A stretch of 64,000 nucleotides of DNA, from the NCBI GenBank assembly GCA_034433515.1, contig DAOUAL010000023.1, forward strand, positions 73 through 64,072, given 5' to 3'. The notes under the pieces were generated by a model that was given only the letters and a program-made list of their open reading frames with translations, did not search any database and was not told the origin of the DNA. This document shows positions 29,661-51,218 of this stretch, piece by piece. The translations under genes were made by a program, and so were the position numbers. This stretch comes from Anaerolineae bacterium (lineage in GTDB: Bacteria; Chloroflexota; Anaerolineae; UBA4142). Each line of letters begins with the position of its first letter. The stretch's first letter is position 1.

Positions 29661-29685
29661 GTAGAGACGTTGCAATGTGTGTCCT

Positions 29686-30150
29686 ATGGCTGACAGCGAA
29701 AAAATTCTCGCCACTAATCGCAAAGCATATCATGATTACCATATCGAGGAAACGTACGAAGCCGGCATTGCCTTGACCGGTACCGAAATCAAATCGGTGC
29801 GGGCAGGCAGTATCAATCTGCGCGATAGTTATGCCCAAGTGAAACATGGCGAGTTGTGGTTGCTGAATGCTCACATTGCGCCCTACGAACCCGCCAGTCG
29901 TCAAAACGTTGATCCGTACCGTGATCGCAAATTGTTGATGCATCGGCGTGAAATCATGCGCTTGTTTGGTCGCGTGCAAGAAAAGGGATTGACCCTCGTG
30001 CCACTCAAGGTCTATCTCAAAAAAAACCGCGCCAAAGTGGAAATTGGTTTGGCGCGCGGCAAGAAACTGTATGACAAACGTGAAGCGATTAGCAAACGCG
30101 ATGCGGCGCGTGAGATTGCGCGCGCCGTCAAGGAACACCGCCGTTCGTGA
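29686..30150 (+). CDS. smpB: SsrA-binding protein
   Basis: 'NRKAYHDYHIEETYEAGIALTGTEIKSVR', 'RDRKLLMHRREI'. The start could instead be GTG 29677. Confidence 0.92.
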   Translation: MADSEKILATNRKAYHDYHIEETYEAGIALTGTEIKSVRAGSINLRDSYAQVKHGELWLLNAHIAPYEPASRQNVDPYRDRKLLMHRREIMRLFGRVQEKGLTLVPLKVYLKKNRAKVEIGLARGKKLYDKREAISKRDAAREIARAVKEHRRS

Positions 30151-30166
30151 ATGAACCCAGAATCAT

Positions 30167-30198
30167 TTCGCCCCGGCCATGGCCGGGGCGAATGTTTT
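30167..30198 (+). terminator. Intrinsic terminator after smpB
   Basis: 'ttcgccccggcc-at-ggccggggcgaa' followed by 'tgtttt'. Confidence 0.65.
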
Positions 30199-30213
30199 GA
30201 CAATTCAACCGGT

Positions 30214-30597
30214 CTATCCCTTGACGTAGGATAACTTTTCGCAAATCAAACCATGCTCCACCCGAAAGAAATCCACACCTCGGACGTGTCCGCGCTTGCC
30301 GGCGGCATCCACCCAAGTGTATCGCCAGCGCATAATGCATCGTTCGCCAAAACCAAATACCTCTTCAATTTCGATGCGGGCATGAGGAGATTCACGGAAG
30401 AAATCGTGCCAGAATTCAGTAATCGCTTGCTTTCCCGTGTATCGCGTGCCGTCCGGCGCCGGCGCGGTGTTTTCAAAGACACCTTCCTCACTCCAAAGTT
30501 GCATCATCCCGGCGACATTATGCTGATTGAATGCCTCGTTGAAATCCAGAACGACCCGGAGGGCTGATTCTAAACGTGACATGCGAATGGGGGTCAT
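30214..30597 (-). CDS. SnoaL-like / NTF2-fold protein
   Basis: Size of 127 aa and the pattern 'FNEAFNQHNVAGMMQLWSEEGVFE'. Confidence 0.55.
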   Translation of the reverse strand: MTPIRMSRLESALRVVLDFNEAFNQHNVAGMMQLWSEEGVFENTAPAPDGTRYTGKQAITEFWHDFFRESPHARIEIEEVFGFGERCIMRWRYTWVDAAGKRGHVRGVDFFRVEHGLICEKLSYVKG

Positions 30598-30684
30598 ACG
30601 CTTCCTCTTGATTCCAGGGATTATCTATCCTATAATCAGGATAGGCGCACTCGCGGAGAGCGTCAATCCAGAATGGCAAGCGAC

Positions 30685-30713
30685 TTGACAAATCAGCTCA
30701 ACAGAGTATAATG
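30685..30713 (+). promoter_or_regulatory. Consensus sigma70 promoter upstream of cydA
   Basis: TTGACA (30685-90), 17-nt spacer, TATAAT (30708-13). Both hexamers match consensus perfectly. Confidence 0.65.
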
Positions 30714-30744
30714 ATACAAGAATAGTATCATTAGGACTGGTGAT

Positions 30745-30803
30745 GACGCCCGTCCCAAGGTCGAGATGACACTCGACGATGGGGCGGGCGTGTTTTTATT
30801 TTT
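30745..30803 (+). terminator. Intrinsic-terminator-like hairpin inside the cydA leader (possible attenuator or sRNA 3' end)
   Basis: 'gacgcccgtccc...gtcgag-atgaca-ctcgac...ggggcgggcgt' followed by 'gtttttattttt'. The RBS 'aaggagg' and ATG 30823 follow immediately. Confidence 0.55.
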
Positions 30804-30822
30804 CCAAAAGGAGGTCTAGTCC

Positions 30823-32187
30823 ATGGATGCACTGTTACCCGCGCGTTTGCAGTTTGCCATCACCACCGTGTACCATTTTTTCTTTGTGCCATTGACACTG
30901 GGTCTTTCCATCCTCGTTGCCATTATGCAGACGGTGTACTATCGCACCGGCGATGAGCAATGGAAAAAGATGACCCAGTTCTGGGGCAAGTTATTCCTCA
31001 TCAACTTTGCGATGGGCGTGGTGACCGGCATCGTGCAAGAATTTCAGTTTGGGATGAACTGGTCCGAGTACTCACGCTTTGTGGGCGACATTTTTGGTGC
31101 GCCCCTCGCGATCGAAGCCCTGCTGGCTTTCTTTCTCGAATCCACGTTTATCGGCGTGTGGTTCTTTGGCTGGGACAAGGTGAGCCAGCGGGTTCATCTC
31201 GCGGCGATTTGGCTCGTCGCCTTTTCGTCGAACCTGTCGGCGTTGTGGATTTTGCTGGCCAACTCGTTTATGCAACAACCCGTTGGTTACGTGCTGCGCA
31301 ACAATCGCGCCGAGATGAATGATTTCTTTGCTTTGGTAACCAACCCCAACATCTTTACCCAGTATCCTCACGTTTTGTTTGGCGGCATTGTTACTGCCGG
31401 CTTCTTTGTGCTGGGGATTAGCGCGTGGCATTTGTTGCGGCAGAGCAATCCGGATTTCTTTGCGCGCTCGTTCAAAGTTGCTGCTGTGTACGCACTCATC
31501 GGCGCGATCTTTGTCGGTGTCGTGGGGCACGCGCAAGCCCAAGACACCGTGCAGACTCAACCGATGAAGATGGCGGCGGCAGAAGCGTTGTACCAAACCG
31601 AAGATCCTGCGCCACTCTCGCTTTTGACGATTGGCGATCTATCCCAGCGGCGTGAGGTCTTTTCGATTCGCGTGCCGAACTTGTTGAGTTTGCTTTCCTA
31701 CAATCAATTCACAGGAGAGGTGAAGGGCATCAACGATTTGCAAGCCGAGTATCAGAAAAAGTACGGACCTGGCGATTACATTCCCCCGGTTGCCTTTGTG
31801 TATTGGTCGTTCCGCGCAATGGTAGGTGCCGGCTTGGCGATGCTTGCGCTCGCGGCAATCGCGCTGTACTCTTCACTCAAAGATAATGTTGCCGGCAACA
31901 AACTCTTGTTGCGTGTGTTGCCATGGGCAATCCTTCTGCCGTATATCGCAAACACTGCCGGCTGGCTGATGACCGAACTGGGTCGCGTGCCGTGGATTGT
32001 GTTTGGCGTGATGCGCATCGAACAGGGTGTCTCGCCGGCTTCGGTGGTGAACAGCGTATCGGTCCTGATTACGCTTGTGTTGTTCACGCTCATCTATGGT
32101 GCGTTGATGGTGGTTACCGTTTATCTGTTGCGTCGCCATTCGACGCAAGACCCGGCAAAAGAAACGGCGCCAGTCGGCGCGTACTAA
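30823..32187 (+). CDS. cydA: Cytochrome bd ubiquinol oxidase subunit I
   Basis: 'ARLQFAITTVYHFFFVPLTLG', 'GWLMTELGRVPWIV'. Confidence 0.93.
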   Translation: MDALLPARLQFAITTVYHFFFVPLTLGLSILVAIMQTVYYRTGDEQWKKMTQFWGKLFLINFAMGVVTGIVQEFQFGMNWSEYSRFVGDIFGAPLAIEALLAFFLESTFIGVWFFGWDKVSQRVHLAAIWLVAFSSNLSALWILLANSFMQQPVGYVLRNNRAEMNDFFALVTNPNIFTQYPHVLFGGIVTAGFFVLGISAWHLLRQSNPDFFARSFKVAAVYALIGAIFVGVVGHAQAQDTVQTQPMKMAAAEALYQTEDPAPLSLLTIGDLSQRREVFSIRVPNLLSLLSYNQFTGEVKGINDLQAEYQKKYGPGDYIPPVAFVYWSFRAMVGAGLAMLALAAIALYSSLKDNVAGNKLLLRVLPWAILLPYIANTAGWLMTELGRVPWIVFGVMRIEQGVSPASVVNSVSVLITLVLFTLIYGALMVVTVYLLRRHSTQDPAKETAPVGAY

Positions 32188-32205
32188 TCGAAAAGGGAGG
32201 ACACG

Positions 32206-33216
32206 ATGGATCTCAATACGATTTGGTTCATTCTGATCACGGTCTTGTTCAGCGGATTCTTTTTGCTGGAAGGATTCGATTACGGTGTGGGGATCTTGTT
32301 GCCCTTCGTCGGCAAGGACGATGACGAACGGCGCGTGGTCATCAACACGATTGGTCCGTTCTGGGATGGCAATGAGGTGTGGTTGCTCACCGCCGGCGGC
32401 GCGATCTTTGCCGCGTTCCCACATTGGTACGCCACAATGTTCAGCGGATTCTATCTCGCGCTCGCGCTCATTTTGCTCGCGCTCATTCTGCGCGGCGTGG
32501 CGTTCGAGTTTCGGCGCAAAGACGAGCGCCCCCAGTGGCGCAATTTCTGGGATTGGATGATCTTCATCGGGAGTTTGCTCCCTGCCCTACTGTTCGGGGT
32601 TGCCTTTGGTAATCTTTTGCGCGGCGTTCCGATTGATGCCAGCAAGAATTACGTGGGCGATTTCTTTTACCTGCTCAATCCGTACGCTCTGCTCGTCGGC
32701 ATCTATGGGCTGAGTCTGATGATCTTGCATGGCGCAGTCTATCTGAGTCTGCGTAGCGAAGGTCAAGTATCGGATCGTGCGCGAAGCATTGCAACCAAAT
32801 TGTGGTTGCCGGTGGTGGTGTTGCTGGTCGTCGCCCTAGGCGCAAGTTATCTCTTCACCGATATGTACCGGAAACTCGGCGTGAATCCCGGCTTTGTGCC
32901 TATCCTCGGTGGGATGGCGTTGCTATCGGTGATCTGGTTTATTCGCAACAAGCACGATGGTTGGGCATTCTTGATGACTGCATTGACCATTGTTACAACG
33001 GTCATCACCATCTTTTTAACGCTCTACCCGCGCGTGATGATTTCATCGCTCAAACCGGAATGGAGTCTAACGATTTACAATGCTTCTTCGTCGCCCTACA
33101 CCTTGACCGTGATGACTATTATCGCGGTGATCTTTGTGCCGATTGTGCTAGCGTACCAAGCGTGGACGTACTATGTGTTTGGTAAACGGGTGAGTAAAAA
33201 GTCGCTGGTGGCGTGA
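32206..33216 (+). CDS. cydB: Cytochrome bd ubiquinol oxidase subunit II
   Basis: 'IWFILITVLFSGFFLLEGFDYGVG'. Directly follows cydA. Confidence 0.9.
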   Translation: MDLNTIWFILITVLFSGFFLLEGFDYGVGILLPFVGKDDDERRVVINTIGPFWDGNEVWLLTAGGAIFAAFPHWYATMFSGFYLALALILLALILRGVAFEFRRKDERPQWRNFWDWMIFIGSLLPALLFGVAFGNLLRGVPIDASKNYVGDFFYLLNPYALLVGIYGLSLMILHGAVYLSLRSEGQVSDRARSIATKLWLPVVVLLVVALGASYLFTDMYRKLGVNPGFVPILGGMALLSVIWFIRNKHDGWAFLMTALTIVTTVITIFLTLYPRVMISSLKPEWSLTIYNASSSPYTLTVMTIIAVIFVPIVLAYQAWTYYVFGKRVSKKSLVA

Positions 33217-33222
33217 TATAAT

Positions 33223-33250
33223 GTAGGGGCGTAGCAAACTACGCCCCTAC
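33223..33250 (+). other. Perfect 12-bp stem hairpin between cydB and cydD
   Basis: 'gtaggggcgtag-caaa-ctacgcccctac'. No clear U-tract. Confidence 0.7.
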
Positions 33251-33258
33251 GTGTATTT

Positions 33259-34986
33259 ATGAAATTCGACAAACGTTTACTGGCCCAACTGAACAACGCC
33301 CGCATCTTTTTTGTGTTCACGATTCTGTGCGGATTCGTGATGGGCATTCTGACCATCGCGCAGGCGTACACGTTGAGCCAGATCATCGCCCAAGTTTTTT
33401 TGCGACATTCCACGCTCGATAGGGTGTGGAACGCCATGCTCATCTTGCTGGGCATTATCATCGTACGCGTGATTTTGGCATGGGCAAGCGAGGTGAGCGC
33501 GTCTCAAATCGCCGCGCGCATCAAGACTGATTTGCGCGAACGTCTGGTTCAACGATTGTTCACGCTGGGTCCTGCCTACGCGCGCGGTGAACGCACCGGC
33601 GAATTGGTGAACACGCTGACCGAAGGCATCGAAGCGCTGGATGCGTATTTCAGTCAGTACCTGCCTCAACTTGTTCTTGCCGCGCTCCTTCCGCTTGCGA
33701 TCCTGCTCTTTGTCTTTCCACTCGATTGGTTGTCCGGCATCGTCTTGTTGTTCACGGGACCACTCATTCCAATTTTTATGATGCTCATTGGGAGTGCGGC
33801 AGACGCACTCACGCGCAAACAGTACTCGCAACTCAGTTTGATGAGCGCGCATTTCCTCGATGTATTGCAAGGATTGACGACGCTAAAGATCTTTGGACGC
33901 AGTCGCGAACAGATTGAGACGATTGCGCGCGTGAGCTATCAATTCCGCGATACAACATTGAGCGTTTTGCGTGTGGCGTTCCTGTCCGCCTTTGCGCTCG
34001 AAATGATTGCAACGATCAGCACGGCTATCGTGGCTGTCCAAGTGGGGTTGCGTTTGCTCTATGGTCAACTCGATTTTGAGCGTGCATTTTTTGTTTTGGT
34101 GCTTGCGCCGGATTTTTACTTGCCGTTGCGATTGCTCGGGACGCGATTTCACGCGGGAATGGCTGGCGTTGCTGCGGCGGCTCGGATTTTTGAAATCCTT
34201 GAAACAAATGACGGACGACGGAAGACGAGTGAGATGCCGTCGTCCTTGGTTGTTTGTCTTCCGTCCATTACCTTCAAAAATGTTCACTATTCCTACGATG
34301 GTACTCGCCCCGCGCTCAACGGTGTTTCTTTCACGATCGAACCCGGTCAGCGCATCGCGTTGGTGGGACACACGGGGGCTGGCAAAAGTACCATTATCCA
34401 CCTCTTGATGCGTTTTATCGAACCAACACGCGGCGAAATTTTTTGCGGCGACCTTTCATCGCGCGAGGTATCCCCAGAAGCATGGCGCACACAAATCGCG
34501 TGGGTGCCCCAGTTGCCGTACTTGTTCAACAATTCGATTGCAAACAACATTCGTCTGGCGCGCCCCGATGCGTCAATGGACGAAGTTGTGCGTGCTGCTC
34601 AACTTGCGCACGCCGATGATTTTATCCGCGCGTTACCACAGGCGTATGAAACGATCATCGGTGAGCGTGGCGCGCGGTTGAGTGGTGGACAAGCCCAACG
34701 CCTCGCCCTAGCACGTGCCTTCTTGAAAGACGCCCCGATTTTGGTTCTTGACGAGCCAACGTCGAATCTCGATGTTGAGACCGAAGAGTTGATTCAAGAC
34801 TCGCTGGAACGTTTGATGCCAGGCAAGACAACCCTGATCGTCTCGCATCGTTTGAATACCGCAATGCAAGCAGACCAGATGCTTGTTCTTGAGCAAGGTC
34901 GCATCGCCGAAGTGGGTACGCATCACGAGTTAATGCAGCAACGCGGCGTGTATCATCGTCTCGTGATGGCACGGGAGGCGCTGTGA
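33259..34986 (+). CDS. cydD: Thiol reductant ABC exporter subunit CydD
   Basis: TMD plus NBD: 'GHTGAGKST', 'LSGGQAQRLALARA', 'ILVLDEPT'. Position after cydAB. Confidence 0.8.
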   Translation: MKFDKRLLAQLNNARIFFVFTILCGFVMGILTIAQAYTLSQIIAQVFLRHSTLDRVWNAMLILLGIIIVRVILAWASEVSASQIAARIKTDLRERLVQRLFTLGPAYARGERTGELVNTLTEGIEALDAYFSQYLPQLVLAALLPLAILLFVFPLDWLSGIVLLFTGPLIPIFMMLIGSAADALTRKQYSQLSLMSAHFLDVLQGLTTLKIFGRSREQIETIARVSYQFRDTTLSVLRVAFLSAFALEMIATISTAIVAVQVGLRLLYGQLDFERAFFVLVLAPDFYLPLRLLGTRFHAGMAGVAAAARIFEILETNDGRRKTSEMPSSLVVCLPSITFKNVHYSYDGTRPALNGVSFTIEPGQRIALVGHTGAGKSTIIHLLMRFIEPTRGEIFCGDLSSREVSPEAWRTQIAWVPQLPYLFNNSIANNIRLARPDASMDEVVRAAQLAHADDFIRALPQAYETIIGERGARLSGGQAQRLALARAFLKDAPILVLDEPTSNLDVETEELIQDSLERLMPGKTTLIVSHRLNTAMQADQMLVLEQGRIAEVGTHHELMQQRGVYHRLVMAREAL

Positions 34987-34987
34987 G

Positions 34988-36757
34988 ATGAAAGCCTCAC
35001 GTTCTACGTTCTTCGCTTTACTTCGCCTTGCTGTGCCGTTCCAATGGCTCATCGCGCTGGCGGTCTTGCTGGGCGCATTCACGATCGGTAGTAGCATTGG
35101 TTTGATGGCAACGTCTGCATACATTATTGCGAGCGCGGCGTTGCATCCCTCCATCGCTGACCTTGCCGTGCCAATTGTGGGTGTGCGATTCTTTGGTATC
35201 GCGCGCGGGGTGTTTCGCTATCTCGAACGGCTCATCTCGCACTATATCAACTTTAGTTTGCTTGCCCGTCTGCGCGTTTGGTTTTACTCAACCATCGAAC
35301 CGCTTGCGCCAGCGCGTCTAAGGCAATATCGCAGCGGCGATTTATTGACGCGCATCATCAGTGACATCGAGACGCTCCAAAATTTCTACGTTCGCATCAT
35401 CGCGCCGCCGCTGATTGCTGTGGTGATTGCCATTGCTACCTCTGTCTTTCTTGCAAGTTTTTCCTCCATAATTGCATTGACCGTGCTAGGTTTTATGTTT
35501 CTCGTTGGTGTTGTCGTACCGATTCTTGTGCAACAAATCAGCGAGACGCCCAATCGCCAAATGATCGAACGGCGCGCCGAACTCAATGCGAATGTGGTGG
35601 ATAGCGTACAGGGCATTGCAGATTTGATCGCTTATGGTGGCGAACGCGCACAGTTTGAACGTATGGCTGATCTAAATCATCGTTTGATTCGCGTACAAAC
35701 GCTTTTGGCATCTATCACCGGCTTGCACAATGCGCTGGGAAATTTGTTGACTCATCTGGCAATGTGGTGTGTGCTGGTGATCGCAATTCCGCTGGTGAAT
35801 GTGGCGCGGTTCGATGGGGTATATTTGCCGGTGATTGCGTTAGCCGTGCTGGCAAGTTTTGAAGGAGTGCTTGCCCTGCCCTTGGCGTTTCAATATCTGG
35901 AAAGTAATTTGCAGGCGGCGCGGCGGTTGTTTGAGATTACAGACCACCGACCTCAGATAACAGACCACCGATCACCAAAAACTTTGGGTGCTCATCCATC
36001 AGCAATCAAGTTTGAAAATGTTTCTTTCCGTTATTCGCCCCGCGAACCGCTCGTGCTTGAGAATGTGAGTTTTGAATTGCAAACCGGCAAACGCATGGCG
36101 ATTGTAGGAGAAAGCGGTGCGGGCAAAACGACCATCGTCAATTTGCTCTTGCGCTTCTGGGATTGCACAAGTGGACACATCATCGTGGATGGACGCGAGT
36201 TGGCTGAATACACACCGGACGATGCACGAAAACTTTTCGCTGTCGTGGCGCAACCCACGCATTTGTTTAATGCGACGATTCGGGAAAATCTTTTGTTGGC
36301 GCGTCCGCAAGCCACCGAAGCCGAAATGAGGGAGGCGGCAAAGCAAGCGCAAATTCACGATTTCATTCTGTCTTTGCCGGATGGCTATAACACGCGGATT
36401 GGTGAACAAGGTTTGCGCTTGAGCGGTGGTGAACGTCAGCGTTTAGCCATTGCGCGTGCGTGGCTAAAGGATGCACCGATTCTGATTTTCGACGAGCCGA
36501 CGGCGAATCTTGATACCGTTACTGAACGTGAGGTTTTGCGCGCCATTCATCATTCCACTTTGAATCGCACGGTATTGCTGATTACGCATCGCCTTGTGGG
36601 GTTGGAGGATTTCGACGAAATCATCGTGTTGCAGGCGGGGCGCATTGTGGAACGCGGGACACCGAAGGGTCTATTGCAAGAAGAGGGATTGTATCGTAGA
36701 ATGTGGACACTTCAGAATCGAATGTTGGTTGAGAATTTACATCATGTTGTCCATTAG
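34988..36757 (+). CDS. cydC: Thiol reductant ABC exporter subunit CydC
   Basis: 'GESGAGKTT', 'LSGGERQRLAIARA', 'ILIFDEPT'. Confidence 0.8.
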   Translation: MKASRSTFFALLRLAVPFQWLIALAVLLGAFTIGSSIGLMATSAYIIASAALHPSIADLAVPIVGVRFFGIARGVFRYLERLISHYINFSLLARLRVWFYSTIEPLAPARLRQYRSGDLLTRIISDIETLQNFYVRIIAPPLIAVVIAIATSVFLASFSSIIALTVLGFMFLVGVVVPILVQQISETPNRQMIERRAELNANVVDSVQGIADLIAYGGERAQFERMADLNHRLIRVQTLLASITGLHNALGNLLTHLAMWCVLVIAIPLVNVARFDGVYLPVIALAVLASFEGVLALPLAFQYLESNLQAARRLFEITDHRPQITDHRSPKTLGAHPSAIKFENVSFRYSPREPLVLENVSFELQTGKRMAIVGESGAGKTTIVNLLLRFWDCTSGHIIVDGRELAEYTPDDARKLFAVVAQPTHLFNATIRENLLLARPQATEAEMREAAKQAQIHDFILSLPDGYNTRIGEQGLRLSGGERQRLAIARAWLKDAPILIFDEPTANLDTVTEREVLRAIHHSTLNRTVLLITHRLVGLEDFDEIIVLQAGRIVERGTPKGLLQEEGLYRRMWTLQNRMLVENLHHVVH

Positions 36758-37151
36758 TCGTGAAACTGATTATGCGTGCCGGGTGATTTTGCATCTTGCC
36801 TTGTTACCTGCCGATACCCGGGTAACAGCGCAAGAAATTGCTAAAAAGCGCATTATTCCGCGCGCGCTCGTGCGCCGCGTAATCACTCGGCTGGGCAAAG
36901 CCAAATTGATCAAGACAAGTCGTGGAAATCGCGGTGGGTTGCGCTTGGCTCGTCCGGCTGCACAAATCAGTTTACTGGATGTGGTGCAAGCGATGGAAGG
37001 GACCATCGCCCTGAATGCTTGCTTGCTCACCGAATATAAATGTCCGCTGATGAAAGACTGTACGGTCCATCTGGCATGGGAACAGATTCAGCGAACATTC
37101 CTGACCGAACTTGAACGCACCACGTTTGATCGTTTGGCACGAAGGGTATAG
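36744..37151 (+). CDS. Rrf2-family transcriptional regulator with a 3-Cys (Fe-S type) motif
   Basis: 'MLSISRETDYACRVILHLA', wHTH 'TAQEIAKKRIIPRALVRRVITRLGKAKLIKTSRGNRGG', 'CLLTEYKCPLMKDC'. Overlaps the cydC end by 14 nt. Confidence 0.85.
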   Translation: MLSISRETDYACRVILHLALLPADTRVTAQEIAKKRIIPRALVRRVITRLGKAKLIKTSRGNRGGLRLARPAAQISLLDVVQAMEGTIALNACLLTEYKCPLMKDCTVHLAWEQIQRTFLTELERTTFDRLARRV

Positions 37152-37210
37152 TTCAGTGCTGACCTTCGCCGGTTCGACACCTGTGAACTGCACCCGGCGC
37201 GAACGCACAA

Positions 37211-37238
37211 TTGACGCGTAACTCGTTCGTGATATAAT
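37211..37238 (+). promoter_or_regulatory. Putative ssrA promoter
   Basis: TTGACG, 16-nt spacer, TATAAT, ending 12 nt before the mature 5' end. Confidence 0.55.
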
Positions 37239-37250
37239 ACAGGTGCAATT

Positions 37251-37653
37251 GGGGATGCATGGCTTCGACGGGGAGGGCTGTTTCAGAGTTGCAAGCCGTG
37301 GAGTCTAGCCACGTTAAAATGGACACAAGTAAGTGCGAACACTCGCACCAACCTTGCAGCGCTGCCGGTCGCAGCGTAAGCTGTTGAGCGGATCGCTGAC
37401 AGGTTCGCAGACTAGATCTGCGACGTCCGCGCGCGTTCTCCCCCAAAGGATGCGCGTTGGGCGCCACCAAGTTGGGGTGCGACAATCGCCACGCCGGTAA
37501 CGGTTGTCAAAGACGTAGGGGGGGCCCCCGACACGGCTGAGCGTGATCACCTCTGTCGGTTGAGCCGGATCACGCGAGATTCAAAAACCGACTAGGCTTG
37601 TAGGAACTCTGGAACGAACTTTTCGGACGCGGGTTCGATTCCCGCCATCTCCA
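37251..37653 (+). ncRNA. ssrA: tmRNA (SsrA), tag ANTRTNLAALPVAA
   Basis: 5' 'ggggatgcatggcttcgacgggg' and 3' 'ggacgcgggttcgattcccgccatctcca' form the tRNA-like domain. Tag reading frame gcg(37335)...gca gcg taa(37377-79). The CCA is not encoded. Confidence 0.93.
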
Positions 37654-37656
37654 CTC

Positions 37657-37692
37657 AATCGCCTGCCAATAACTCGGCAGGCGATTCGTTTT
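37657..37692 (+). terminator. Intrinsic terminator after ssrA
   Basis: 'aatcgcctgcc-aataactc-ggcaggcgatt' followed by 'cgtttt'. Confidence 0.75.
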
Positions 37693-37770: not shown

Positions 37771-37799
37771 TTGCCGGAAACCCGGTCTGTGGGTAGAAT
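37771..37799 (+). promoter_or_regulatory. Putative promoter of the sensor-TIR operon
   Basis: TTGCCG, 17-nt spacer, TAGAAT, about 50 nt upstream of ATG 37849. Confidence 0.45.
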
Positions 37800-37848
37800 G
37801 GTCAAGGGTGATTAGCATGATTCAAATTTTAGGCGACGAATAGAATAT

Positions 37849-40086
37849 ATGTCACGCAAACCGCCTTATCCGTCCGAAACCCAATCCACCTTAGGGGCAT
37901 TTTTTGCCCGCTTGATCCGTCAAAAGCCGGCGGTGGTCCAACCGGTGCCCACCGATCGGCAAAGGATCAACTTGTTGCTCGTTTGCGAAGACCCAGCGTT
38001 TTGCGAGGCACTGCAACGAGCATGGTTTGATCGCGAGGACCAGCGGTATCAAGTTGCGGTGGCAAACAGTCCCCGTGAAGCGCGCGAAAAAGTGTCGGCG
38101 CAATTCTTTGATGTCCTGTTGATTGATCAGAAATTAAAAGGCGAGGGAGGGGATGGCACGCACCTCACCACCGAGTTGCTCAAGATCAGCCCGGATAGTG
38201 CGGCTATTTTGCTGACCGAATTTTCTAGCCCGGAGGATGGTTTGCGCGCCGTGCAAGCCGGCGCTGATGATTATCTCATCAAGACTGCGGATTGGCAGAC
38301 AACGTTCCGTGAACTTGCGTTGCGGGTTGCCGTCTTGTTCGAGAACAAAGAAGCGCGGCGGCGGCGCGTGCAAGAATTGGAAAGTTTGGTCGAGATTCAA
38401 AGTGCGATCATTGGTATCGAATCGGAAGCGGATCTGCCCAAGGTTTTGGATTCCGTCGTGCAATTTGCGATGCAGTATCTCTCGCACGTGGATGCCATCA
38501 CGATCTTTTACATCAATCCCGAAACCGGCGAGCCGCAATTTGGTGGCGCTGCCGGCATCCTCGATCTCGAACAACTCAAAAACCACCCTCCCAAATTGAA
38601 ACGAGTGTTGTCGTTGACCGAACCGTACTATGCGTTCAACGCAGCCGAAGACCTGGTTGTGCACGGTGAGTTTATTACGCGAGAAAAGATCGTCTCGGTA
38701 GCCGTCTTTCCACTGATTAATCGTGGCGAACGCTTTGGGTTGATGTTCTTTAATTATCGGCATCCGCAAGCGTTCGATGAAAGCGAAAAGAGCGAGTTGA
38801 GTTTATTTGCTCAACAAGCCGCGTTGGCGATTCACAAAGTGGTCATCTTCGATGAAACTAAACGTCGCCAACAACGCTTTGAAACCATTGCGCGGATTAT
38901 GCCGATTGTGGGGGCGTCACTCGATCCGGAACAAGTGGTGCGGGCTGTGTCGCGCGAGCTTCTCAAAGTCGTTCCACGTGCCCGCGAAGTTTGTATGCTC
39001 TACTATGAACAGGACACGGGCGACCTCGTTTTCTCGTTGGCAAGTTTTGAGTTTTATCACATTGATGTTGTGGGGCAATTGGGTAGAACGCGCCTCAAAG
39101 CCAACGAGCCCAGTACGCCGATGAGCGTGGTGCGATCGGGCAGGGGACTCTACGTGCCCGATGTGAGCAGGCAGCCGGAATATCAACCCTTGGTCAGTTC
39201 CACCCAGTCACAAATGTGTATGCCGATCCAAGTTGGCGGTGAAATCCTGGGTGTGTTGGTGTTAGAAAGTAATCAATTAGACGCCTTTACCTTGGATGAT
39301 CAATTTCTCTTGCAAGCCCTCGCCGATCAAGTTGCTGTTGCTCTCAAAAAAGCGCAGGAACATACCCGGTGGCTCAAAGCCCAAGACGATTTGGCGGCAA
39401 ACGATGCGATCGCCTGGATGGGCTTGTTCGGTTCGAATTGGTCGCACACCGTCAATCAACGCACCTTCGAAATTGAAGGGAAGGTTTTTTTGCTCCGGCA
39501 AGCCCTGGCAGGTGTGGCTTCCCCCGAAATCGAAAGGTGGCTTGCCGATATTGAGGACGCGAGTCGGCAACTCAAAGCCCTTCAAATTGCCGGCAAAGTC
39601 TCGCACGAGCCCCGCCCCGGCGACTCGACCGTTTCGATGGATCGCGTCTTAACCGAACGCGTGCCACGCTGGTGCGAAAAGTTTCCAGAGATAACCTTAA
39701 CGATGGACCTTCAATGCCCGGGTGTCCACGTTCCCATTGAAGAAGGTTGGCTAGAAATTCCCTTGGAGAAACTCATCAACAACGCCCTCAAGGCGATGGG
39801 AGGAAGAGGTGCGCTGAGTGTACGCAGCGCGCGGTACGGCAATCGGATCGAGGTCCAAATTCAAGACACTGGCAAAGGAATTCCAGAAGAAGCCAAAAAG
39901 TATTTGTTCAAACGGCCGGTTCCCAAACCTACCTCCAAAGAAGGCAGTGGCTTGGGATTACTCATTGCACGCAAAGTGTTGACGGCACACGGTGGTGATT
40001 TGGTGCTACTCCGGACCGCCCCAGGCGAAGGCACCACCTTTATGTTTCACCTGCCCGTTGCACACGTAGATGACCAAGGAGCATAA
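37849..40086 (+). CDS. Hybrid sensor: N-terminal receiver (REC), two GAF-like domains, atypical dimerization region, HATPase_c
   Basis: REC: 'LLLVCED', 'FDVLLIDQKL' (D93), 'ILLTEF', 'DYLIK'. GAF-like blocks around aa 175-330 and 345-505 ('GERFGLMFFNY', 'GEILGVLVLES'). ATPase: N box 'LINNALKA', G1 'DTGKGI', G2 'GSGLGLLIA'. Confidence 0.8.
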   Translation: MSRKPPYPSETQSTLGAFFARLIRQKPAVVQPVPTDRQRINLLLVCEDPAFCEALQRAWFDREDQRYQVAVANSPREAREKVSAQFFDVLLIDQKLKGEGGDGTHLTTELLKISPDSAAILLTEFSSPEDGLRAVQAGADDYLIKTADWQTTFRELALRVAVLFENKEARRRRVQELESLVEIQSAIIGIESEADLPKVLDSVVQFAMQYLSHVDAITIFYINPETGEPQFGGAAGILDLEQLKNHPPKLKRVLSLTEPYYAFNAAEDLVVHGEFITREKIVSVAVFPLINRGERFGLMFFNYRHPQAFDESEKSELSLFAQQAALAIHKVVIFDETKRRQQRFETIARIMPIVGASLDPEQVVRAVSRELLKVVPRAREVCMLYYEQDTGDLVFSLASFEFYHIDVVGQLGRTRLKANEPSTPMSVVRSGRGLYVPDVSRQPEYQPLVSSTQSQMCMPIQVGGEILGVLVLESNQLDAFTLDDQFLLQALADQVAVALKKAQEHTRWLKAQDDLAANDAIAWMGLFGSNWSHTVNQRTFEIEGKVFLLRQALAGVASPEIERWLADIEDASRQLKALQIAGKVSHEPRPGDSTVSMDRVLTERVPRWCEKFPEITLTMDLQCPGVHVPIEEGWLEIPLEKLINNALKAMGGRGALSVRSARYGNRIEVQIQDTGKGIPEEAKKYLFKRPVPKPTSKEGSGLGLLIARKVLTAHGGDLVLLRTAPGEGTTFMFHLPVAHVDDQGA

Positions 40087-40089
40087 CCA

Positions 40090-42294
40090 ATGACAGCCAT
40101 TCGTTCCACTCGTCGTATTTTGGTGGTTGACAATGATGCCGGCGTTCGCAAGACAATCAAAGAAGTTCTCCAAGTTAGCAAGTATCAAGTGTATGTTGCT
40201 GAAGGTAGCGGAGAGGCGCTCATCAAGAATGCACGTCAACTGTTGGTGGATTCGCGCTGTCATTTAGCCATCCTCGATCTGCGTCTGATCAATGATAATG
40301 ACCCCGAGGACTGGAGTGGATTCGCGTTGGCTTCCGACATTAGCAAACAATATCCATGGGTGAGTTGCATGTTTCTCACTGGCTATGGCAGTTTCGATCT
40401 GGCGCGGCGCGCACTCGCCCAGAATATTGCCGTGGATGTCGCACGTAAAGACAGTAGTTTTAACGAGATTTTCAGAACGGTGGATCAAGCCTTTAGTAAG
40501 ATTCGTTGCCGCTGGGATCAAGAACTGGAACCTTCCAATCCGGAATGGGACGAACTGCTTGCACCACTCAAAGAACAGATTCCCAGTCCGGAGATTGCGC
40601 AATCTGAATTCGCCGAAGTGCTAGGGCGTTTGTTTCCGGATGCCGATAAATTGCATCTGCGCAAATTGAGTGATTACGAAAGCGCGCCCTCCGTAACTTC
40701 GGGGCATTCGATTTTGTTGCGTGTGGCAGCACATCAGAATGGTCGTTGGTTGGAAGATGTGGCGGTCAAGATTGGTAGCCACGATGCCATTCAACGCGAA
40801 ATCGTCAATTATGATCATTTTGTCCACAACCAAATCGGCGATTATCGCTACACCTTTCGCCAATCCAGCGCATCTACATGGTATTTAGGTGGGATTGTTT
40901 ACGCGCTCATCGGTGCAGAAATTGATAACACGCTGACCTTGCAAGAATATTATCGCAACACTGGCGACTCGGATCATAGATCACTGGATACTGTGCTGAA
41001 TACACTTTTCAGCCGCCTATTCCGCCGCTGGTACGCCGAACCCAAAACTGTTCACATCAACATCTCATCCGAATACACGACTGCACTAGGTTTGAATGAC
41101 ACACGTTTGGCGCGGCTCAAAAATTGGGGCGATGATCCGGAAATTCAATTTGCTGGGATCAGCACTCCCCTGCCCAATCCGTTGGTCTGGATTCAACACC
41201 ATGGTCGCAACAGCGATATTGAAACCAGTCAACATATTGTTCATGGTGACCTTCACAGTCGCAATGTGTTTGTGGGCCCCAATCAAGATGTTTGGTTGAT
41301 TGATTTTGAACGCACAGGTCCCGGGCATTGTTTGCGCGATTATATCGAATTAGAGACCGACATTAAATTTAGTTTGATGTCTGCAGCAATCGAACAACCC
41401 AAACTCTTTTACGCGTTTGAAACTGCTCTGCTAGGACAAACGCGGGATGGACTCAAAAAAGCCGGCGCCTTGTTGCCGCCTGCTCTAGTACGTAATCATC
41501 CTGAAGCGCATCGTGCCTTCACCGTGATTACTCATCTGCGCCAACTTGCTACGGATCGGATCCGGTATCCCGATTTGCGGGATTACTTTTGGGGATTATT
41601 GTTTCAAACGGTGTTTGTTGCCACGCTGAGCAACGTGTCCGATGCCACCCGTGAACAAGTCAAGTTATCTGCCGCCCTCATCTGCCAGCGTCTGGGTGAT
41701 GGAATTCATTTGCGCGAACCCTGGCCTCCCAAAAGCAAAATGGCTCTGATCAAGAGTAAATTGACGAAAAAGAAAACCGTACCTGAATCACGGCGCGTTC
41801 TCTCTCCCAAACGCAAAAGCAATCTGGCTCTGGCACTGCAAACAACACCCTTGGATATCTTTTGCTCGTATTCCCATCGCGACGAGAAAATGCGCCAAGA
41901 GTTAGAGAAACATTTGGCGTTGCTTGAACGACAGGGGATCGGCGTCATTTGGCACGATCGCAAGATTGATGCGGGCGAACCTTGGCGAGGACACATTGAT
42001 GCTCATCTCAAGTCGGCGGATATTATTCTGTTGCTGATCAGCCCTGATTTTCTTGCGTCGGATTATTGCTATGATATCGAAATGAAGAAGGCTTTGGAGC
42101 GCCACGATGCCGGCGAGGTGCGGGTGATACCTATCATTCTCCGTCCCTGCGATTGGCAAAAAGCACCTTTTAGTAAACTGCAAGCCCTGCCCCAAGATGG
42201 CAAGCCGGTTACCCGCTATCGTTCTCGGGACGAAGCTTATTCAAACATTGTGGAGGGAATGTGGCGAGTCATAGAAAAAATGCGTGCCAAGTAA
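40090..42294 (+). CDS. REC / protein-kinase-like (APH/ePK fold) / TIR domain protein
   Basis: REC: 'LVVDNDAG', 'LAILDLRL' (D63), 'FLTGYG'. Kinase-like: 'VAVKIG', 'HGDLHSRNVFV', 'WLIDFERTG'. TIR from aa 589: 'DIFCSYSHRDE', 'IILLLISPDFLASDYCYDIEMKKAL' (putative catalytic E664, codon 42079-81), 'VIPIILRPC'. Confidence 0.8.
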   Translation: MTAIRSTRRILVVDNDAGVRKTIKEVLQVSKYQVYVAEGSGEALIKNARQLLVDSRCHLAILDLRLINDNDPEDWSGFALASDISKQYPWVSCMFLTGYGSFDLARRALAQNIAVDVARKDSSFNEIFRTVDQAFSKIRCRWDQELEPSNPEWDELLAPLKEQIPSPEIAQSEFAEVLGRLFPDADKLHLRKLSDYESAPSVTSGHSILLRVAAHQNGRWLEDVAVKIGSHDAIQREIVNYDHFVHNQIGDYRYTFRQSSASTWYLGGIVYALIGAEIDNTLTLQEYYRNTGDSDHRSLDTVLNTLFSRLFRRWYAEPKTVHINISSEYTTALGLNDTRLARLKNWGDDPEIQFAGISTPLPNPLVWIQHHGRNSDIETSQHIVHGDLHSRNVFVGPNQDVWLIDFERTGPGHCLRDYIELETDIKFSLMSAAIEQPKLFYAFETALLGQTRDGLKKAGALLPPALVRNHPEAHRAFTVITHLRQLATDRIRYPDLRDYFWGLLFQTVFVATLSNVSDATREQVKLSAALICQRLGDGIHLREPWPPKSKMALIKSKLTKKKTVPESRRVLSPKRKSNLALALQTTPLDIFCSYSHRDEKMRQELEKHLALLERQGIGVIWHDRKIDAGEPWRGHIDAHLKSADIILLLISPDFLASDYCYDIEMKKALERHDAGEVRVIPIILRPCDWQKAPFSKLQALPQDGKPVTRYRSRDEAYSNIVEGMWRVIEKMRAK

Positions 42295-42303
42295 CCTATT
42301 CCA

Positions 42304-42337
42304 CCGGCAGAGCCCGCACTCTGCCGGTTTTGCTTTT
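42304..42337 (+). terminator. Intrinsic terminator ending the sensor-TIR operon
   Basis: 'ccggcagag-cccgca-ctctgccgg' followed by 'ttttgctttt'. Confidence 0.75.
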
Positions 42338-42389
42338 CAATGAGAATGATTCTATAATAGAGCCAATATTACTGGCAAGGAGAGCAGGC

Positions 42390-43313
42390 ATGGCAATTCA
42401 ATCTGAACGTGCAACCATTGGGGTTATTGGTGGAAGCGGTGTTTATCAAATGGAGGGATTGACCGACGTCAAAGAAATCAAAGTCAAAACTCCGTTTGGT
42501 GATCCGAGTGACGTGATCGTTCTAGGTACCTTAGGTAACCAACGAGTTGCGTTTCTGCCACGCCACGGTCGCGGTCATCGCATTATGCCGTCCGAACTTC
42601 CCGTTCGCGCGAACATCTATGCCTTGAAATCACTAGGGGTCGAACGAATTATCTCGATTAGCGCGTGTGGTAGTCTGCGCGAAGACTTTGCCCCCCTCGA
42701 TATTGTGATTCCCGATCAACTGTACGATCGAACCAAGAGCCGTCCCCCCACATTTTTTGGCGAAGGGCTCGTGGTGCATATTTCGTTTGCGGATCCGTTT
42801 TGTCCCGAGTTGAGCCAGGTTCTTTACAATGCTGCGATGCACGCCGGAGCGCGTGTGCACAAAGGCGGACGCTTGGTTGTCATTGAGGGACCGCAATTTT
42901 CTACCAAAGCAGAATCAGAAACGTATCGCGCTCTAAAGATGGACATTATTGGAATGACGGCGCTCCCGGAAGCCAAACTAGCGCGTGAGGCAGAAATCTG
43001 TTATGCCACGATTGCTATGGTAACCGACTATGATGTGTGGCATCCGGCGCATGATTCGGTTACTGTGGAAATGGTTGTTCAAAACCTGTTGCGAAATGCC
43101 GAGATGGGCAAACGCATTGTTCGATATGCGGTGGATGAGGTGCCAACAACGCGTGAACATTGTCCCTGCCCCAATGCGCTCAAGGATGCCATCATTACGG
43201 CACGTGATCGAATCCCGGCAAACACCCGGAGAAAACTGGGGATTCTGCTCGATAAGTATTTGCCTTCGGAAGAGACTGCTACCCAATCGCGTAGAATAAA
43301 ATTGAAAAGATAA
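42390..43313 (+). CDS. mtnP: S-methyl-5'-thioadenosine phosphorylase
   Basis: 'IGVIGGSG', 'VAFLPRHGRGH', 'IIGMTALPEAKLAREAE'. ATG 42390 follows 'aaggagag'. Confidence 0.88.
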   Translation: MAIQSERATIGVIGGSGVYQMEGLTDVKEIKVKTPFGDPSDVIVLGTLGNQRVAFLPRHGRGHRIMPSELPVRANIYALKSLGVERIISISACGSLREDFAPLDIVIPDQLYDRTKSRPPTFFGEGLVVHISFADPFCPELSQVLYNAAMHAGARVHKGGRLVVIEGPQFSTKAESETYRALKMDIIGMTALPEAKLAREAEICYATIAMVTDYDVWHPAHDSVTVEMVVQNLLRNAEMGKRIVRYAVDEVPTTREHCPCPNALKDAIITARDRIPANTRRKLGILLDKYLPSEETATQSRRIKLKR

Positions 43314-47685: not shown

Positions 47686-49578
47686 ATGTCCATGAATATG
47701 CAACGAACTCTGCGCTTGATTTTTCCGCTACTCGTCATCCTGTCCCTGTTTTTCCTCGCCTTGCCTACGGCGGCTCAAAGTAAAAGCGTTACCGTCACCC
47801 GCCGCGATTACGATGTAACAATTCAGGTCAATGGCGATGTGCGCATCACCGAAACCTGGGAAGCGCGATTTTCCGGCGGACCGTTCACCTTTGCCTTTCG
47901 TGGCATCACTTTGAATAAAGTCGAAGCCATTGATAGTTTTGCCGTCTCGGAAAATGGGCGCCCTTATCAAGCCAGTCCCTCCCAAGCCGCCAACACGTTT
48001 ACCACGTATCGAGAAAGCGGCCAACAATTTGTCAAATGGTTTTTCCCACCCACCATGAATCAAACTCGCACGTTTGTGATTCAATACACCTTGCACGGGG
48101 CGTTGCGCATTTACGAGGGAGGCGATCAATTCTGGTGGAAAATCATCGAAGGGGATCGTGGCTATCTCATTGAACGATCAACGATCACCGTGAATCTGCC
48201 GGCAACATTTCCCACCGATCAATTAAAAGCGGCAGTAACCACCGGGAGGGGGAGCGCAACGATTCGGGATGGCAAGACGATTGTCTTTACCAGTACGAGT
48301 CTGGGTGAAAGCGGCGAACTGGAAATTCGCGTTCAGTTTCCACACGGCGTTGTAACGGCTTCCGCTCCCAGTTGGCAAGCTGCCGCCGATGCCGAAGCGG
48401 CGGCGAAAGCCGAAGCAGAAAAATATAAACCGATTCTCAACCTGGGGTTTCTCTTTATCGGACTGGTGCTCTTGTTGTTGGGTCCCCTGGGACTCTATTT
48501 GCTCTGGTATCTGCAAGGACGCGATCCCTCCACGCCGATGATCGCACAAACAAGCGCGCCCCCAAGCAACCTGCCGCCTGGCGTGATGGGCACCCTGATT
48601 GACGAACGCGCCGATATGAAGGACATTATCGCTTCAATCGTGGATTTGGCGCGCCGCGGCGTGATCAAAATCATCGAAAAAGCAGAGCCGGGTTTTCTTG
48701 GCATTGGCACGAATCGCGATTTCGTGTTTGAGCTCGTCGGTGATACGAAAGGACTGCGTAAGTACGAAAAGACCCTTATCGAAAAAGTATTTGGCGGTGG
48801 CACCCAGCGCGAATTATCAGATTTAAAAGAAAAATTTTACACGGCGATTCCAACGCTCCAATCGCAAATGTACGAAGAGGTCACCAAAGACGGATATTTC
48901 CCGGCAAACCCCAACGCCACGCGATTAAAATATGCCGGCTTGGGCATCGCCGCGCTTGTCATCTTTGGTGGCATTGGCTTTTGTTTCTTTGGTGCACTAG
49001 TGGAGTACGCTGAACTAGCCATTTGCCCGGCGATTTCGTTGATCGCGACCGCAATCGGCTTGATTACGCTCAGTCCGTTTATGCCGCGTCGCACCCTTAA
49101 AGGTGCAGCCGAACGGCAAAAATGGATCGCCTTCAAACGCTACCTAGAGAGCATTGAAAAGTTTGCCAAACTTGATCAAGCCAAAGAATTGTTTGACAAG
49201 TACTTGCCCTATGCGATTGCGTTTGGTTTAGAAAAATCGTGGGTGCAAAAATTTGCAGCGGTGGGCACCCCTGCCCCGGTCTGGTATGATACCTACACAC
49301 CTCGACGATTCGGCGATACAAGTCGCCAAGGATGGGGTGCCGGGATGGGCAGGAGTGGTGGCGGTGTTTCCGGCGGCAGACAAATGCCCTCACTCGATAG
49401 TATGGCAAGCGGCTCGTTTCGCGGACTCGATTCGATGAGCGAAGGATTTTTCTCGATGCTCAACTCTACCGCATCGGTCCTCAGCAGCGCCCCCTCTAGT
49501 TCTGGCGGCGGTGGCTGGAGCGGTGGCGGAGGAGGAGGCGGCGGCGGTGGTGGCGGCGGCTCTTCCGGCTTTGGATAG
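47686..49578 (+). CDS. DUF2207-family membrane protein with Gly-rich C-terminal tail
   Basis: Signal/TM, large extracytoplasmic domain, central TM helices, tail 'GGGGWSGGGGGGGGGGGGGSSGFG'. The start may be ATG 47692 or 47698. Confidence 0.6.
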   Translation: MSMNMQRTLRLIFPLLVILSLFFLALPTAAQSKSVTVTRRDYDVTIQVNGDVRITETWEARFSGGPFTFAFRGITLNKVEAIDSFAVSENGRPYQASPSQAANTFTTYRESGQQFVKWFFPPTMNQTRTFVIQYTLHGALRIYEGGDQFWWKIIEGDRGYLIERSTITVNLPATFPTDQLKAAVTTGRGSATIRDGKTIVFTSTSLGESGELEIRVQFPHGVVTASAPSWQAAADAEAAAKAEAEKYKPILNLGFLFIGLVLLLLGPLGLYLLWYLQGRDPSTPMIAQTSAPPSNLPPGVMGTLIDERADMKDIIASIVDLARRGVIKIIEKAEPGFLGIGTNRDFVFELVGDTKGLRKYEKTLIEKVFGGGTQRELSDLKEKFYTAIPTLQSQMYEEVTKDGYFPANPNATRLKYAGLGIAALVIFGGIGFCFFGALVEYAELAICPAISLIATAIGLITLSPFMPRRTLKGAAERQKWIAFKRYLESIEKFAKLDQAKELFDKYLPYAIAFGLEKSWVQKFAAVGTPAPVWYDTYTPRRFGDTSRQGWGAGMGRSGGGVSGGRQMPSLDSMASGSFRGLDSMSEGFFSMLNSTASVLSSAPSSSGGGGWSGGGGGGGGGGGGGSSGFG

Positions 49579-49607
49579 AATCGAATCACCAATTCAGTGG
49601 AGGTCGC

Positions 49608-50141
49608 ATGACAACCGGTCGCATCGTGGGAATCATTTTGATGCTTGCAGGGCTAGCCATTTGCGGCATCGTTTCGCTATTTTTGGGTTTGGGCGCGATG
49701 GGTTCGGGTCCCGCGCCGCTTTCGCCGGCTGGCGCAGTGCTGGGGATCGCCTTGTTTGGTGTGGTGCCATTGCTGATTCTGGGTGGCGTGGGCGTCTTTA
49801 TGTTCATCAAAGGTGGACAGGAAGCCGCCGAGATGGCAGACGTGCGCAAGAAGGAACGCTTGCTTGGAATGATTCAAGCCGCCGGGAAAATTTCGCTGGG
49901 CAACGCCGCCATCGAACTCAAGATGACGCGCGATCAAGTGAAAAATGCAATCCTCGAATTAGTGAACCAGGGATTGTTCACCGGCTATATCAATTGGAAA
50001 GAAGGCATCTTTTATTCCAAAGATGTTTCGCAGATGCAGACAACCAAATGTCCCAACTGCGGCGGCGAGCGTTCTGCGGTAGGCAAGGGCGTTATCAAAT
50101 GTGAGTACTGCGGCGCCGAGTTGTTCCTGCCGCAGAGTTAG
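49608..50141 (+). CDS. Small membrane protein: 2 TM, winged-helix-like segment, C-terminal zinc ribbon
   Basis: TM helices at aa 5-75. 'GKISLGNAAIELKMTRDQVKNAILELVNQGLFTGYI'. 'CPNCGG...CEYCG'. Confidence 0.5.
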   Translation: MTTGRIVGIILMLAGLAICGIVSLFLGLGAMGSGPAPLSPAGAVLGIALFGVVPLLILGGVGVFMFIKGGQEAAEMADVRKKERLLGMIQAAGKISLGNAAIELKMTRDQVKNAILELVNQGLFTGYINWKEGIFYSKDVSQMQTTKCPNCGGERSAVGKGVIKCEYCGAELFLPQS

Positions 50142-50182
50142 TGCCGAACGGCTGGGCGCTCAGTCGGACAGGAGCAAACGGA

Positions 50183-51190: not shown

Positions 51191-51218
51191 AAAGACCGCT
51201 ATTTCCCAAGGAGGAAAA

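Follow-up and report, generated by a model that had tools for sequence, protein, structure and literature searches.

What is the role of a two-gene operon that lies between a tmRNA gene and a housekeeping phosphorylase gene, if its first protein is a sensor kinase and its second joins a receiver (REC), a kinase-like domain and a TIR domain? This question is raised by a locus of an Anaerolineae bacterium (Chloroflexota; assembly GCA_034433515.1, contig DAOUAL010000023.1). We analysed a stretch of 64,000 nucleotides that contains it, referred to as the window. Coordinates are window positions, and the genes, domains and signals of the locus lie on the forward strand. We consider, with a probability of about 60%, that this pair of genes is a reduced form within a Chloroflexota family of conflict systems that are driven by a phosphorelay and would act in defence or programmed cell death. 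The original prediction had read the pair as a phosphorelay-gated TIR suicide or signalling module. That idea stands, carried by the domains, the conserved pairing of the genes, their variable presence and the swapping of effectors. Its claims to novelty and completeness, and the place it gave to TIR as the core output, do not.

The two proteins and their catalytic residues

Gene 1 (37849 to 40086, 745 amino acids, exact start codon uncertain) has a REC-GAF-GAF-DHp-HATPase_c histidine kinase architecture according to Pfam and the alignment of its homologs. The receiver covers residues 44-148 (37978 to 38292; Pfam Response_reg, E = 2.8e-14) and has a putative acceptor, D93, together with E47/D48, T123 and K145. 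The tandem GAF region that follows (38356 to 39345) is matched by Pfam GAF_2 (E = 7.5e-28) and GAF, in two stretches each. The second GAF domain corresponds to the best Pfam stretch, residues 358-499, and the first would extend over approximately residues 170-340, with inferred limits. The HATPase_c domain (residues 639-738; 39763 to 40062; Pfam E = 3.3e-19) has the N box, DxGxG and GxGL motifs. Pfam HisKA has no match in gene 1, and the close homologs of gene 1 are all without HisKA. A divergent H box, NWSHTVNQ, is found in the helical region preceding the canonical N box, and its His533 (codon at 39445 to 39447) is the putative autophosphorylation site. His533 is invariant across 24 aligned gene-1 homologs, in which the N box, DxGxG and GxGL are also conserved. 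Because an invariant histidine precedes canonical forms of these three motifs, we read gene 1 as a genuine histidine kinase whose H box has diverged. PADLOC gave nothing significant for gene 1, the sole match being PDC-M43B at E = 0.002. No transmembrane segments were found in gene 1 (the maximum Kyte-Doolittle mean over 19 residues is 1.33) or in gene 2.

Gene 2 (40090 to 42294, 734 amino acids) begins with a receiver (residues 10-131; 40117 to 40482; Pfam Response_reg, E = 1.4e-8). Its acceptor, D63, is encoded at 40276 to 40278 and is accompanied by T97, K120 and D14/D16; an alignment of 41 homologs shows no variation at D63 or K120. In the AlphaFold2 model of gene 2, the receiver and the kinase part are predicted with confidence (pLDDT of about 90), and Foldseek matches the receiver model to phosphorylated receiver domains, with TMt 0.87-0.88 for the REC domains of ArcA and NtrX. 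By the classical standards of two-component systems, the pair has a conserved histidine with a HATPase_c core, a receiver with the acidic pocket, Asp, Thr and Lys, and adjacent, co-inherited genes.

The central part of gene 2 (approximately residues 170-545; 40597 to 41724) is a kinase-like domain. It is matched by Pfam TCAD9 (PF19974) with E = 3.3e-34 and 119 bits against a cutoff of 40, and more weakly by the overlapping APH family (E = 6.4e-6). For this part, Foldseek ranks APH(3')-Ia first (E = 1e-6, TMt about 0.55); PADLOC has no significant match for the domain. The complete catalytic set of the protein kinase-like (PKL)/APH fold is present, namely the Lys-Glu pair (K227 in VAVK, and E237), the HxDxxxxN loop (HGDLHSRN, residues 385-392; 41242 to 41265) and the metal-binding Asp (D405 in IDFE). 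K227, H385-G386-D387-L-H-x-x-N392 and D405 are invariant in the 41 homologs, and E237 is nearly invariant (at least 90%).

The C-terminal TIR domain covers residues 588-734 (41851 to 42291), of which 590-699 are matched by Pfam TIR_2 (E = 9.5e-18). Its catalytic glutamate, E664 (42079 to 42081), is invariant in 34 TIR homologs, and the PADLOC ThsB model PDLC00420 matches residues 590-733 with E = 1.5e-60, the TIR being the one part of gene 2 that PADLOC matches. The TIR part of the full-length AlphaFold model was unusable, and the domain was modelled alone with its own alignment. This model has a pLDDT of 92.6, and Foldseek matches it to the TIR domains of MAL, SARM1, SPARTA and AbTir. In sequence, the domain belongs to a clade of TIR proteins that stand alone, occur very widely and are about 60% identical to it; some of them carry EAD7. 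The domains first proposed for the two genes (a receiver, two GAF-like blocks and HATPase_c in gene 1; a receiver, a kinase/APH-like core and a C-terminal TIR in gene 2) are thus confirmed by Pfam and, for gene 2, also by fold matches. D63 and E664 had both been placed correctly.

The two genes are tightly arranged. Only 3 nucleotides separate the TAA stop of gene 1 (40084-86) from the ATG of gene 2 (40090), and the AAGGAG ribosome-binding site of gene 2, read from the sequence at 40076 to 40081, lies within the 3' end of gene 1, which suggests translational coupling. An intrinsic terminator ends the unit at 42303 to 42338, with a 10-bp stem (hairpin 42303-42328) that has 7 GC pairs and is followed by TTTTGCTTTTC. 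The spacing and the terminator on which the original prediction relied are therefore both borne out, by the open reading frame coordinates and by the hairpin, and its single transcription unit between the ssrA terminator and mtnP is upheld. Its promoter fares less well. The candidate sigma-70-type element TTGCCG-17-TAGAAT is present at 37771 to 37799, but it is weak: it matches 9 of 12 positions, and 10 equally good matches are observed in the 6 kb region versus 5.1 expected by chance. The region aligns only with a near-identical (98%) sibling locus, L006, which makes its conservation uninformative. Given the 9/12 match, the number of such matches in the region and an alignment confined to L006, we treat the promoter of gene 1 as unproven.

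A conserved gene pair with exchangeable effectors

Gene 2 belongs to a large family. A word-indexed search returned 72 homologs, and an exhaustive search returned 2500 matches at E <= 1e-3. With E <= 1e-30 there are at least 320 REC-TCAD9 clusters at 50% identity, almost all from Chloroflexota, and nearly all of them align across the whole receiver-plus-kinase region. Among the 150 representatives with the best scores, about half consist of REC-TCAD9 only; at 520-600 amino acids they have no room for a further domain. This effector-less core is the commonest form of the family. In the 43 longer members, the C-terminal tails include caspase (9), TIR (8), CHAT (8) and EAD7 (2) domains, and SIR2, trypsin, PNP, metallophosphatase and nucleotide cyclase occur once each. 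Family tails match PADLOC effector models for the CBASS PN-superfamily effector, caspase, chat, nuclease-type metallophosphatase and ThsB.

The TIR domain had been taken as the core output of the module. About half of the 150 best representatives have no fused effector, and the conserved output of the family is instead the kinase-like domain. Because this output is invariant in the family and its catalytic set is complete, we expect the domain to perform real phosphotransfer rather than to serve purely as a scaffold.

The kinase gene is a constant partner of this core. A genome scan built on 17 closer sequences gave 23 loci, all but one (labelled Nitrospirae) from metagenome-assembled genomes of Chloroflexota, either Anaerolineae or Caldilineae. 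In 22 of the 23, the REC-TCAD9 gene is directly preceded by a gene-1 homolog of the same orientation. The upstream kinase gene is also present at all six effector-variant loci (L029-L034, which represent four distinct places). Starting from the kinase, three of the three close gene-1 homologs that were looked up lead straight into a gene-2 homolog. The histidine kinase and REC-TCAD9 genes are a conserved dyad, so the expectation that the two would remain neighbours in related genomes holds.

The dyad is usually part of something larger. The usual operon has four genes, which encode an S1-REC-histidine kinase (S1-REC-HK), a REC-GAF-HK, a REC-TCAD9-X protein and a STAND protein that carries a wHTH (winged helix-turn-helix). 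At most loci the S1-REC-HK gene is found upstream, and a gene with nSTAND1/AAA plus Trans_reg_C domains is found immediately downstream. Neither gene is present in the 64 kb window. A reduced clade, made up of the window, L006, L001/L007 and L115, has two genes, short GAF arrays and a fused TIR. The original description of a self-contained two-gene operon needs correction, as the pair is not the whole system in most relatives. Because the canonical operon adds the S1-REC-HK and STAND-wHTH genes, we interpret the window locus, from its domain and gene content, as a reduced two-gene, TIR-fused derivative of this larger system.

Several relatives show further arrangements. In L003 (301-1958), stand-alone TIR and AAA_16 genes lie just upstream of the S1-REC-HK gene and the REC-TCAD9 protein is effector-less, which suggests that the effector can be supplied in trans. 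In L032 and in L033 (10754-12698), a DDE transposase lies between a TCAD9-CHAT gene and an 88-residue TIR remnant downstream of it, an order that looks like an insertion sequence severing a C-terminal TIR tail. A protein of 941 amino acids from a hydrothermal vent metagenome (P0369) has GAF, HATPase_c, EAD7 and nSTAND1 in one chain. Judged by its domains, it would be a further link of histidine-kinase cores to conflict-system adaptors or STAND NTPases.

The site between ssrA and mtnP

The upstream border of the locus is ssrA (37251 to 37654, forward strand), which is detected by ARAGORN and by Rfam RF00023 (149 bits) and encodes the tag peptide ANTRTNLAALPVAA. Its intrinsic terminator (37657 to 37686) has an 11-bp stem with 7 GC pairs, plus a T-run. 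The downstream border is an mtnP-like methylthioadenosine (MTA) phosphorylase gene (42390 to 43313, forward strand; Pfam PNP_UDP_1, E = 2e-45), a housekeeping gene outside the system. Both flanks are of a housekeeping kind, with smpB, cydABDC, Rrf2 and ssrA upstream and the MTA-phosphorylase-type PNP, PHO4, an enolase-superfamily enzyme and phosphoglycerate mutase downstream.

A metagenome scan with the MTA phosphorylase showed that many relatives have the tmRNA directly upstream of mtnP. For example, the two are adjacent in L038 (1488-2008), and also in L042, L045, L046, L048, L052, L060 and L069. L038 has an identical tmRNA tag, matching downstream synteny and a gap of 125 bp between ssrA and mtnP with nothing in it. 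The adjacency looks ancestral in the lineage, and L038 is an empty site. Since this close relative has ssrA directly beside mtnP, the two genes form an insertion of 4.6 kb that separates the ssrA terminator from the mtnP promoter. Their presence varies across relatives, a point that the original prediction had proposed to check. In L006, a gene for a cNMP_binding-GAF-SpoIIE/PP2C phosphatase (3905-5620, minus strand) lies between ssrA and gene 1; it is not in the window, where the junction would be near 37718. Thus, the site downstream of ssrA varies even among genomes that are 98% identical.

Both genes are under strong purifying selection. Compared with L006, gene 1 has a dN/dS of 0.05 and gene 2 one of 0.04, and no domain is relaxed. 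The synonymous divergence from L006 is uneven along 37849 to 42291 (dS 0.46 in gene 1 and 0.20 in gene 2, with a pS of only 0.05 in the TIR), and recombination may have occurred within the locus. In L115 (2874-4044), an ssrA-adjacent locus that belongs to the two-gene clade, a frameshift near 3428-3445 breaks the gene-2 homolog in two, which marks either a pseudogene or an assembly error.

Two explanations of the site were considered and rejected. One is a mobile element integrated at ssrA: there are no att-like direct repeats, no integrase and no GC shift, and the nearest tyrosine recombinase is 13 kb away. The other is a functional link of the APH-like kinase to the neighbouring mtnP. MtnK is a kinase of the APH family. 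However, the ssrA-mtnP adjacency looks ancestral, the pair is inserted into it, and other members of the family are not beside mtnP.

Some features of the surroundings may be recorded here. The best promoter match of the region belongs to ssrA (TTGACG-16-TATAAT, 37211-37238, 11/12 with TG). A promoter-like TTGCTT-17-TATAAT at 42330-42358 precedes mtnP, whose most likely start is the ATG at 42390; the mechanically called open reading frame begins at a GTG at 42261 and overlaps the end of gene 2. The smpB gene lies 7 kb upstream of ssrA (29677-37654), with the cydAB oxidase, a cydDC-type ABC transporter and the Rrf2 regulator between them. A cluster of DUF2207, PCI-domain, DUF4178, PspA/IM30 and SPFH-zinc-ribbon genes at 47686-52985 looks like a membrane-stress module.

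Known systems, competing explanations and a proposed mechanism

The closest precedent is Detocs, a defensive two-component system made up of DtcA, DtcB and DtcC (Rousset et al. 2023, preprint 10.1101/2023.01.24.525353). Its defence is lost on mutation of the phosphate-binding His of the kinase, the receiving Asp of the regulator or the PNP active site, and its authors conclude that kinase-to-receiver phosphotransfer activates the fused effector (10.1101/2023.01.24.525353). As in Detocs, a histidine kinase gene is linked here to a regulator in which a cell-damaging enzyme replaces the DNA-binding output, and the effector domain is swappable within each family. One relative of the window family, P0007, even carries a Cap17/DtcC-type PNP effector. 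The differences are as follows. The sensor of the window is REC-GAF-GAF with no TPR, whereas that of DtcA is TPR. There is no stand-alone buffer receiver like DtcB, and no open reading frame between or beside the two genes that could supply it, while the published detection rule for Detocs demands all three genes (10.1101/2023.01.24.525353). An APH-like kinase domain of about 400 residues stands between receiver and effector in gene 2. In place of the PNP, REase, TOPRIM and transmembrane effectors of Detocs, where PNP accounts for 80% of DtcC (10.1101/2023.01.24.525353), the window family has TIR, caspase, CHAT and SIR2. The canonical operon adds a second kinase (S1-REC-HK) and a STAND-wHTH gene, and the window family is almost entirely from Chloroflexota. 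In addition, gene 2 is not matched by the PADLOC REC-PNP candidate models PDC-M60B/C, which we infer to be equivalents of Detocs, though domains of its relatives are. We rejected membership in Detocs on the sensor type, the missing DtcB, the intervening kinase and the lack of a match to these hidden Markov models (HMMs), and keep it as a functional analogue.

The TCAD9 domain itself was defined from conflict systems and takes its name from the vWA-MoxR-VMAP 'ternary' systems (Kaur, Burroughs, Iyer, Aravind, eLife 2020 and 2021). These papers describe an active aminoglycoside-kinase-like domain, receivers, and TIR, caspase and EAD adaptors among the effectors of conflict systems in multicellular bacteria including Chloroflexi, and state that the receiver domains occur 'independently of histidine kinases'. 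In contrast, a dedicated histidine kinase is the constant partner at the window-type loci. No vWA, MoxR or VMAP genes were found in the flanks or in the related loci examined, and we rejected a ternary system of this kind. The Ambrosia defence operon also embeds a histidine kinase and a receiver protein, but no enzyme is fused to that receiver; its regulator carries a wHTH, and the proposal is that it controls transcription of restriction-modification-like genes (preprint 10.1101/2025.09.30.679545). Among TIR NADases that induced assembly activates, SARM1, AbTir, SPARTA TIR-APAZ and the CRISPR-associated Cat1 share with gene 2 the TIR fold, the catalytic Glu and the place of an effector downstream of a sensing module, as judged from sequence and fold matches. 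The predicted switch differs, being phosphorylation of a receiver Asp rather than a nucleic-acid guide, a cyclic nucleotide or the sensing of NMN/NAD+.

In the literature on TCAD9, on REC-kinase-TIR proteins and on two-component/TIR defence, we found no description of this operon. The statement that its wiring matches no named system therefore stands for the exact operon. It does not stand for the principle, since Detocs is a validated precedent and TCAD9 was already in Pfam. The concept of the locus is less novel than had been claimed, because a named and validated precedent exists.

How well does the reading as a conflict system hold? In its favour, the family has the signature of such systems, that is, swappable effector tails, a frequently adjacent STAND-wHTH gene and EAD7 adaptors. 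A number of observations weigh against it. The locus has no att-like repeat of the tmRNA 3' end, integrase or GC deviation and sits outside any defence island, and phage-borne relatives were not found among 2.9 million viral contigs. The pair is inherited at the same site in genomes that are only 67% identical in protein, which would also fit an ordinary chromosomal signalling system. Since about half of the 150 best-scoring representatives carry no death effector, the core function of the family need not be lethal. Finally, the absence of the S1-REC-kinase and STAND genes from the window means that the input of this particular locus may be incomplete or rewired.

The strongest alternative is ordinary, non-lethal signalling. 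The receiver-controlled APH-like kinase would then be the real output, acting on a metabolite or a protein, and the TIR would modulate NAD+ or make a signal for physiology such as dormancy, filament development or stress. The prevalence of the effector-less core and the invariant kinase residues fit this explanation, as do the housekeeping surroundings, the normal GC, the stable position across the 67%-identical genomes and the wHTH STAND protein, of transcription-factor type, in the canonical operons. However, nearly all of the variable tails are effectors of the classic cell-damaging kind with matches to defence HMMs, the family includes EAD7 adaptors, close relatives differ in whether they have the pair, and the sibling L006 has different cargo at the same site. 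We regard purely physiological signalling as unlikely for these reasons.

A Thoeris-like mode of action, where the TIR makes a nucleotide signal (a cyclic ADP-ribose isomer or one of the histidine-ADP-ribose type) for an unlinked effector and NAD+ is not depleted, is more doubtful still. Bacterial TIR domains are established signal generators, as in Thoeris. The TIR of gene 2 matches the ThsB HMM strongly (E = 1.5e-60) and has the catalytic Glu, but it is the C-terminal tail of a response regulator and not a stand-alone sensor. Within about 10-15 kb there is no gene of the ThsA type (SIR2, Macro, SLOG). More broadly, a Pfam scan of the 20 flanking genes at 22.5-53 kb found no SIR2, SLOG, Macro, STING, STAND or cyclase genes, which upholds the earlier observation that no ThsA, STING, NLR-NTPase or cyclase partner is nearby. 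Thoeris itself was rejected, as none of these 20 genes encodes a ThsA (a SIR2, Macro or transmembrane effector with a SLOG sensor). Moreover, relatives have terminal effectors in the position of the TIR (caspase, CHAT, PNP, SIR2, trypsin, nuclease-type metallophosphatase), which argues that the TIR is a terminal effector also. It is very improbable that the pair is a decaying remnant, a four-gene system that lost its S1-REC-kinase and STAND genes and with them its signalling, since against the missing partners and the frameshifted gene 2 of L115, a member of the same clade, stand two intact reading frames with every catalytic residue, the dN/dS of 0.04-0.05 and the retention of the two-gene form in at least three lineages (window/L006, L001 and L115).

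For the preferred reading, a phosphorelay-driven conflict system, we suggest the following mechanism. The gene 1 kinase would be cytoplasmic, with its activity set by the tandem GAF domains and possibly by its own N-terminal receiver. In the full operons, D93 of this receiver is probably addressed by the S1-REC-kinase; in the reduced form, an unlinked kinase may take that part, or the receiver may act, by analogy with DtcB, as an internal phosphate sink. Upon a presumed trigger, gene 1 would autophosphorylate at His533 and pass the phosphoryl group to Asp63 of gene 2; this predicted direction of transfer, and the first part of the mechanism as a whole, is based on the conserved dyad and the intact residues. 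Phosphorylation of the receiver is then predicted to lift inhibition, to drive self-association of gene 2 and to turn on both enzymatic parts. The first would be the APH-type kinase, the conserved core output of the family. The second would be the TIR, whose active site would be assembled by self-association and would hydrolyse NAD+, with growth arrest or death as the presumed outcome. Receivers are established to dimerise, and TIR NADases depend on assembly. Activation by oligomerisation and the NADase activity are modelled on these two facts, together with the Detocs precedent.

A broader proposal, which we hold more tentatively and at somewhat less than even odds, concerns the family. The REC-TCAD9 operons could be a distinct immune or programmed-death family of filamentous Chloroflexota. 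In such systems, a receiver-gated kinase cascade (RNA-binding S1-REC-HK to REC-GAF-HK to REC-APH-like kinase) would converge on an active small-molecule or protein kinase, through which any signal from Asp phosphorylation to the swappable death effector, here a TIR NADase, would have to pass. This would be the logic of Detocs, to which a further enzymatic layer and the sensing of nucleic acids as input are added. An RNA-sensing input to a two-component cascade, as the S1-domain kinase of the full operons suggests, would be unusual.

If our reading is correct, the principle of Detocs, phosphorelay-triggered effectors, would extend to TIR, caspase, CHAT and SIR2 and to a poorly studied phylum. 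The TCAD9 kinase-like domain would gain a defined regulatory context, with a dedicated histidine kinase and receiver. The reduced pair of the window would represent a minimal two-protein system for switching a TIR NADase by Asp phosphorylation. Through D63, H533, K227 and E664, the activation mechanism of bacterial TIR enzymes would thus become directly testable.

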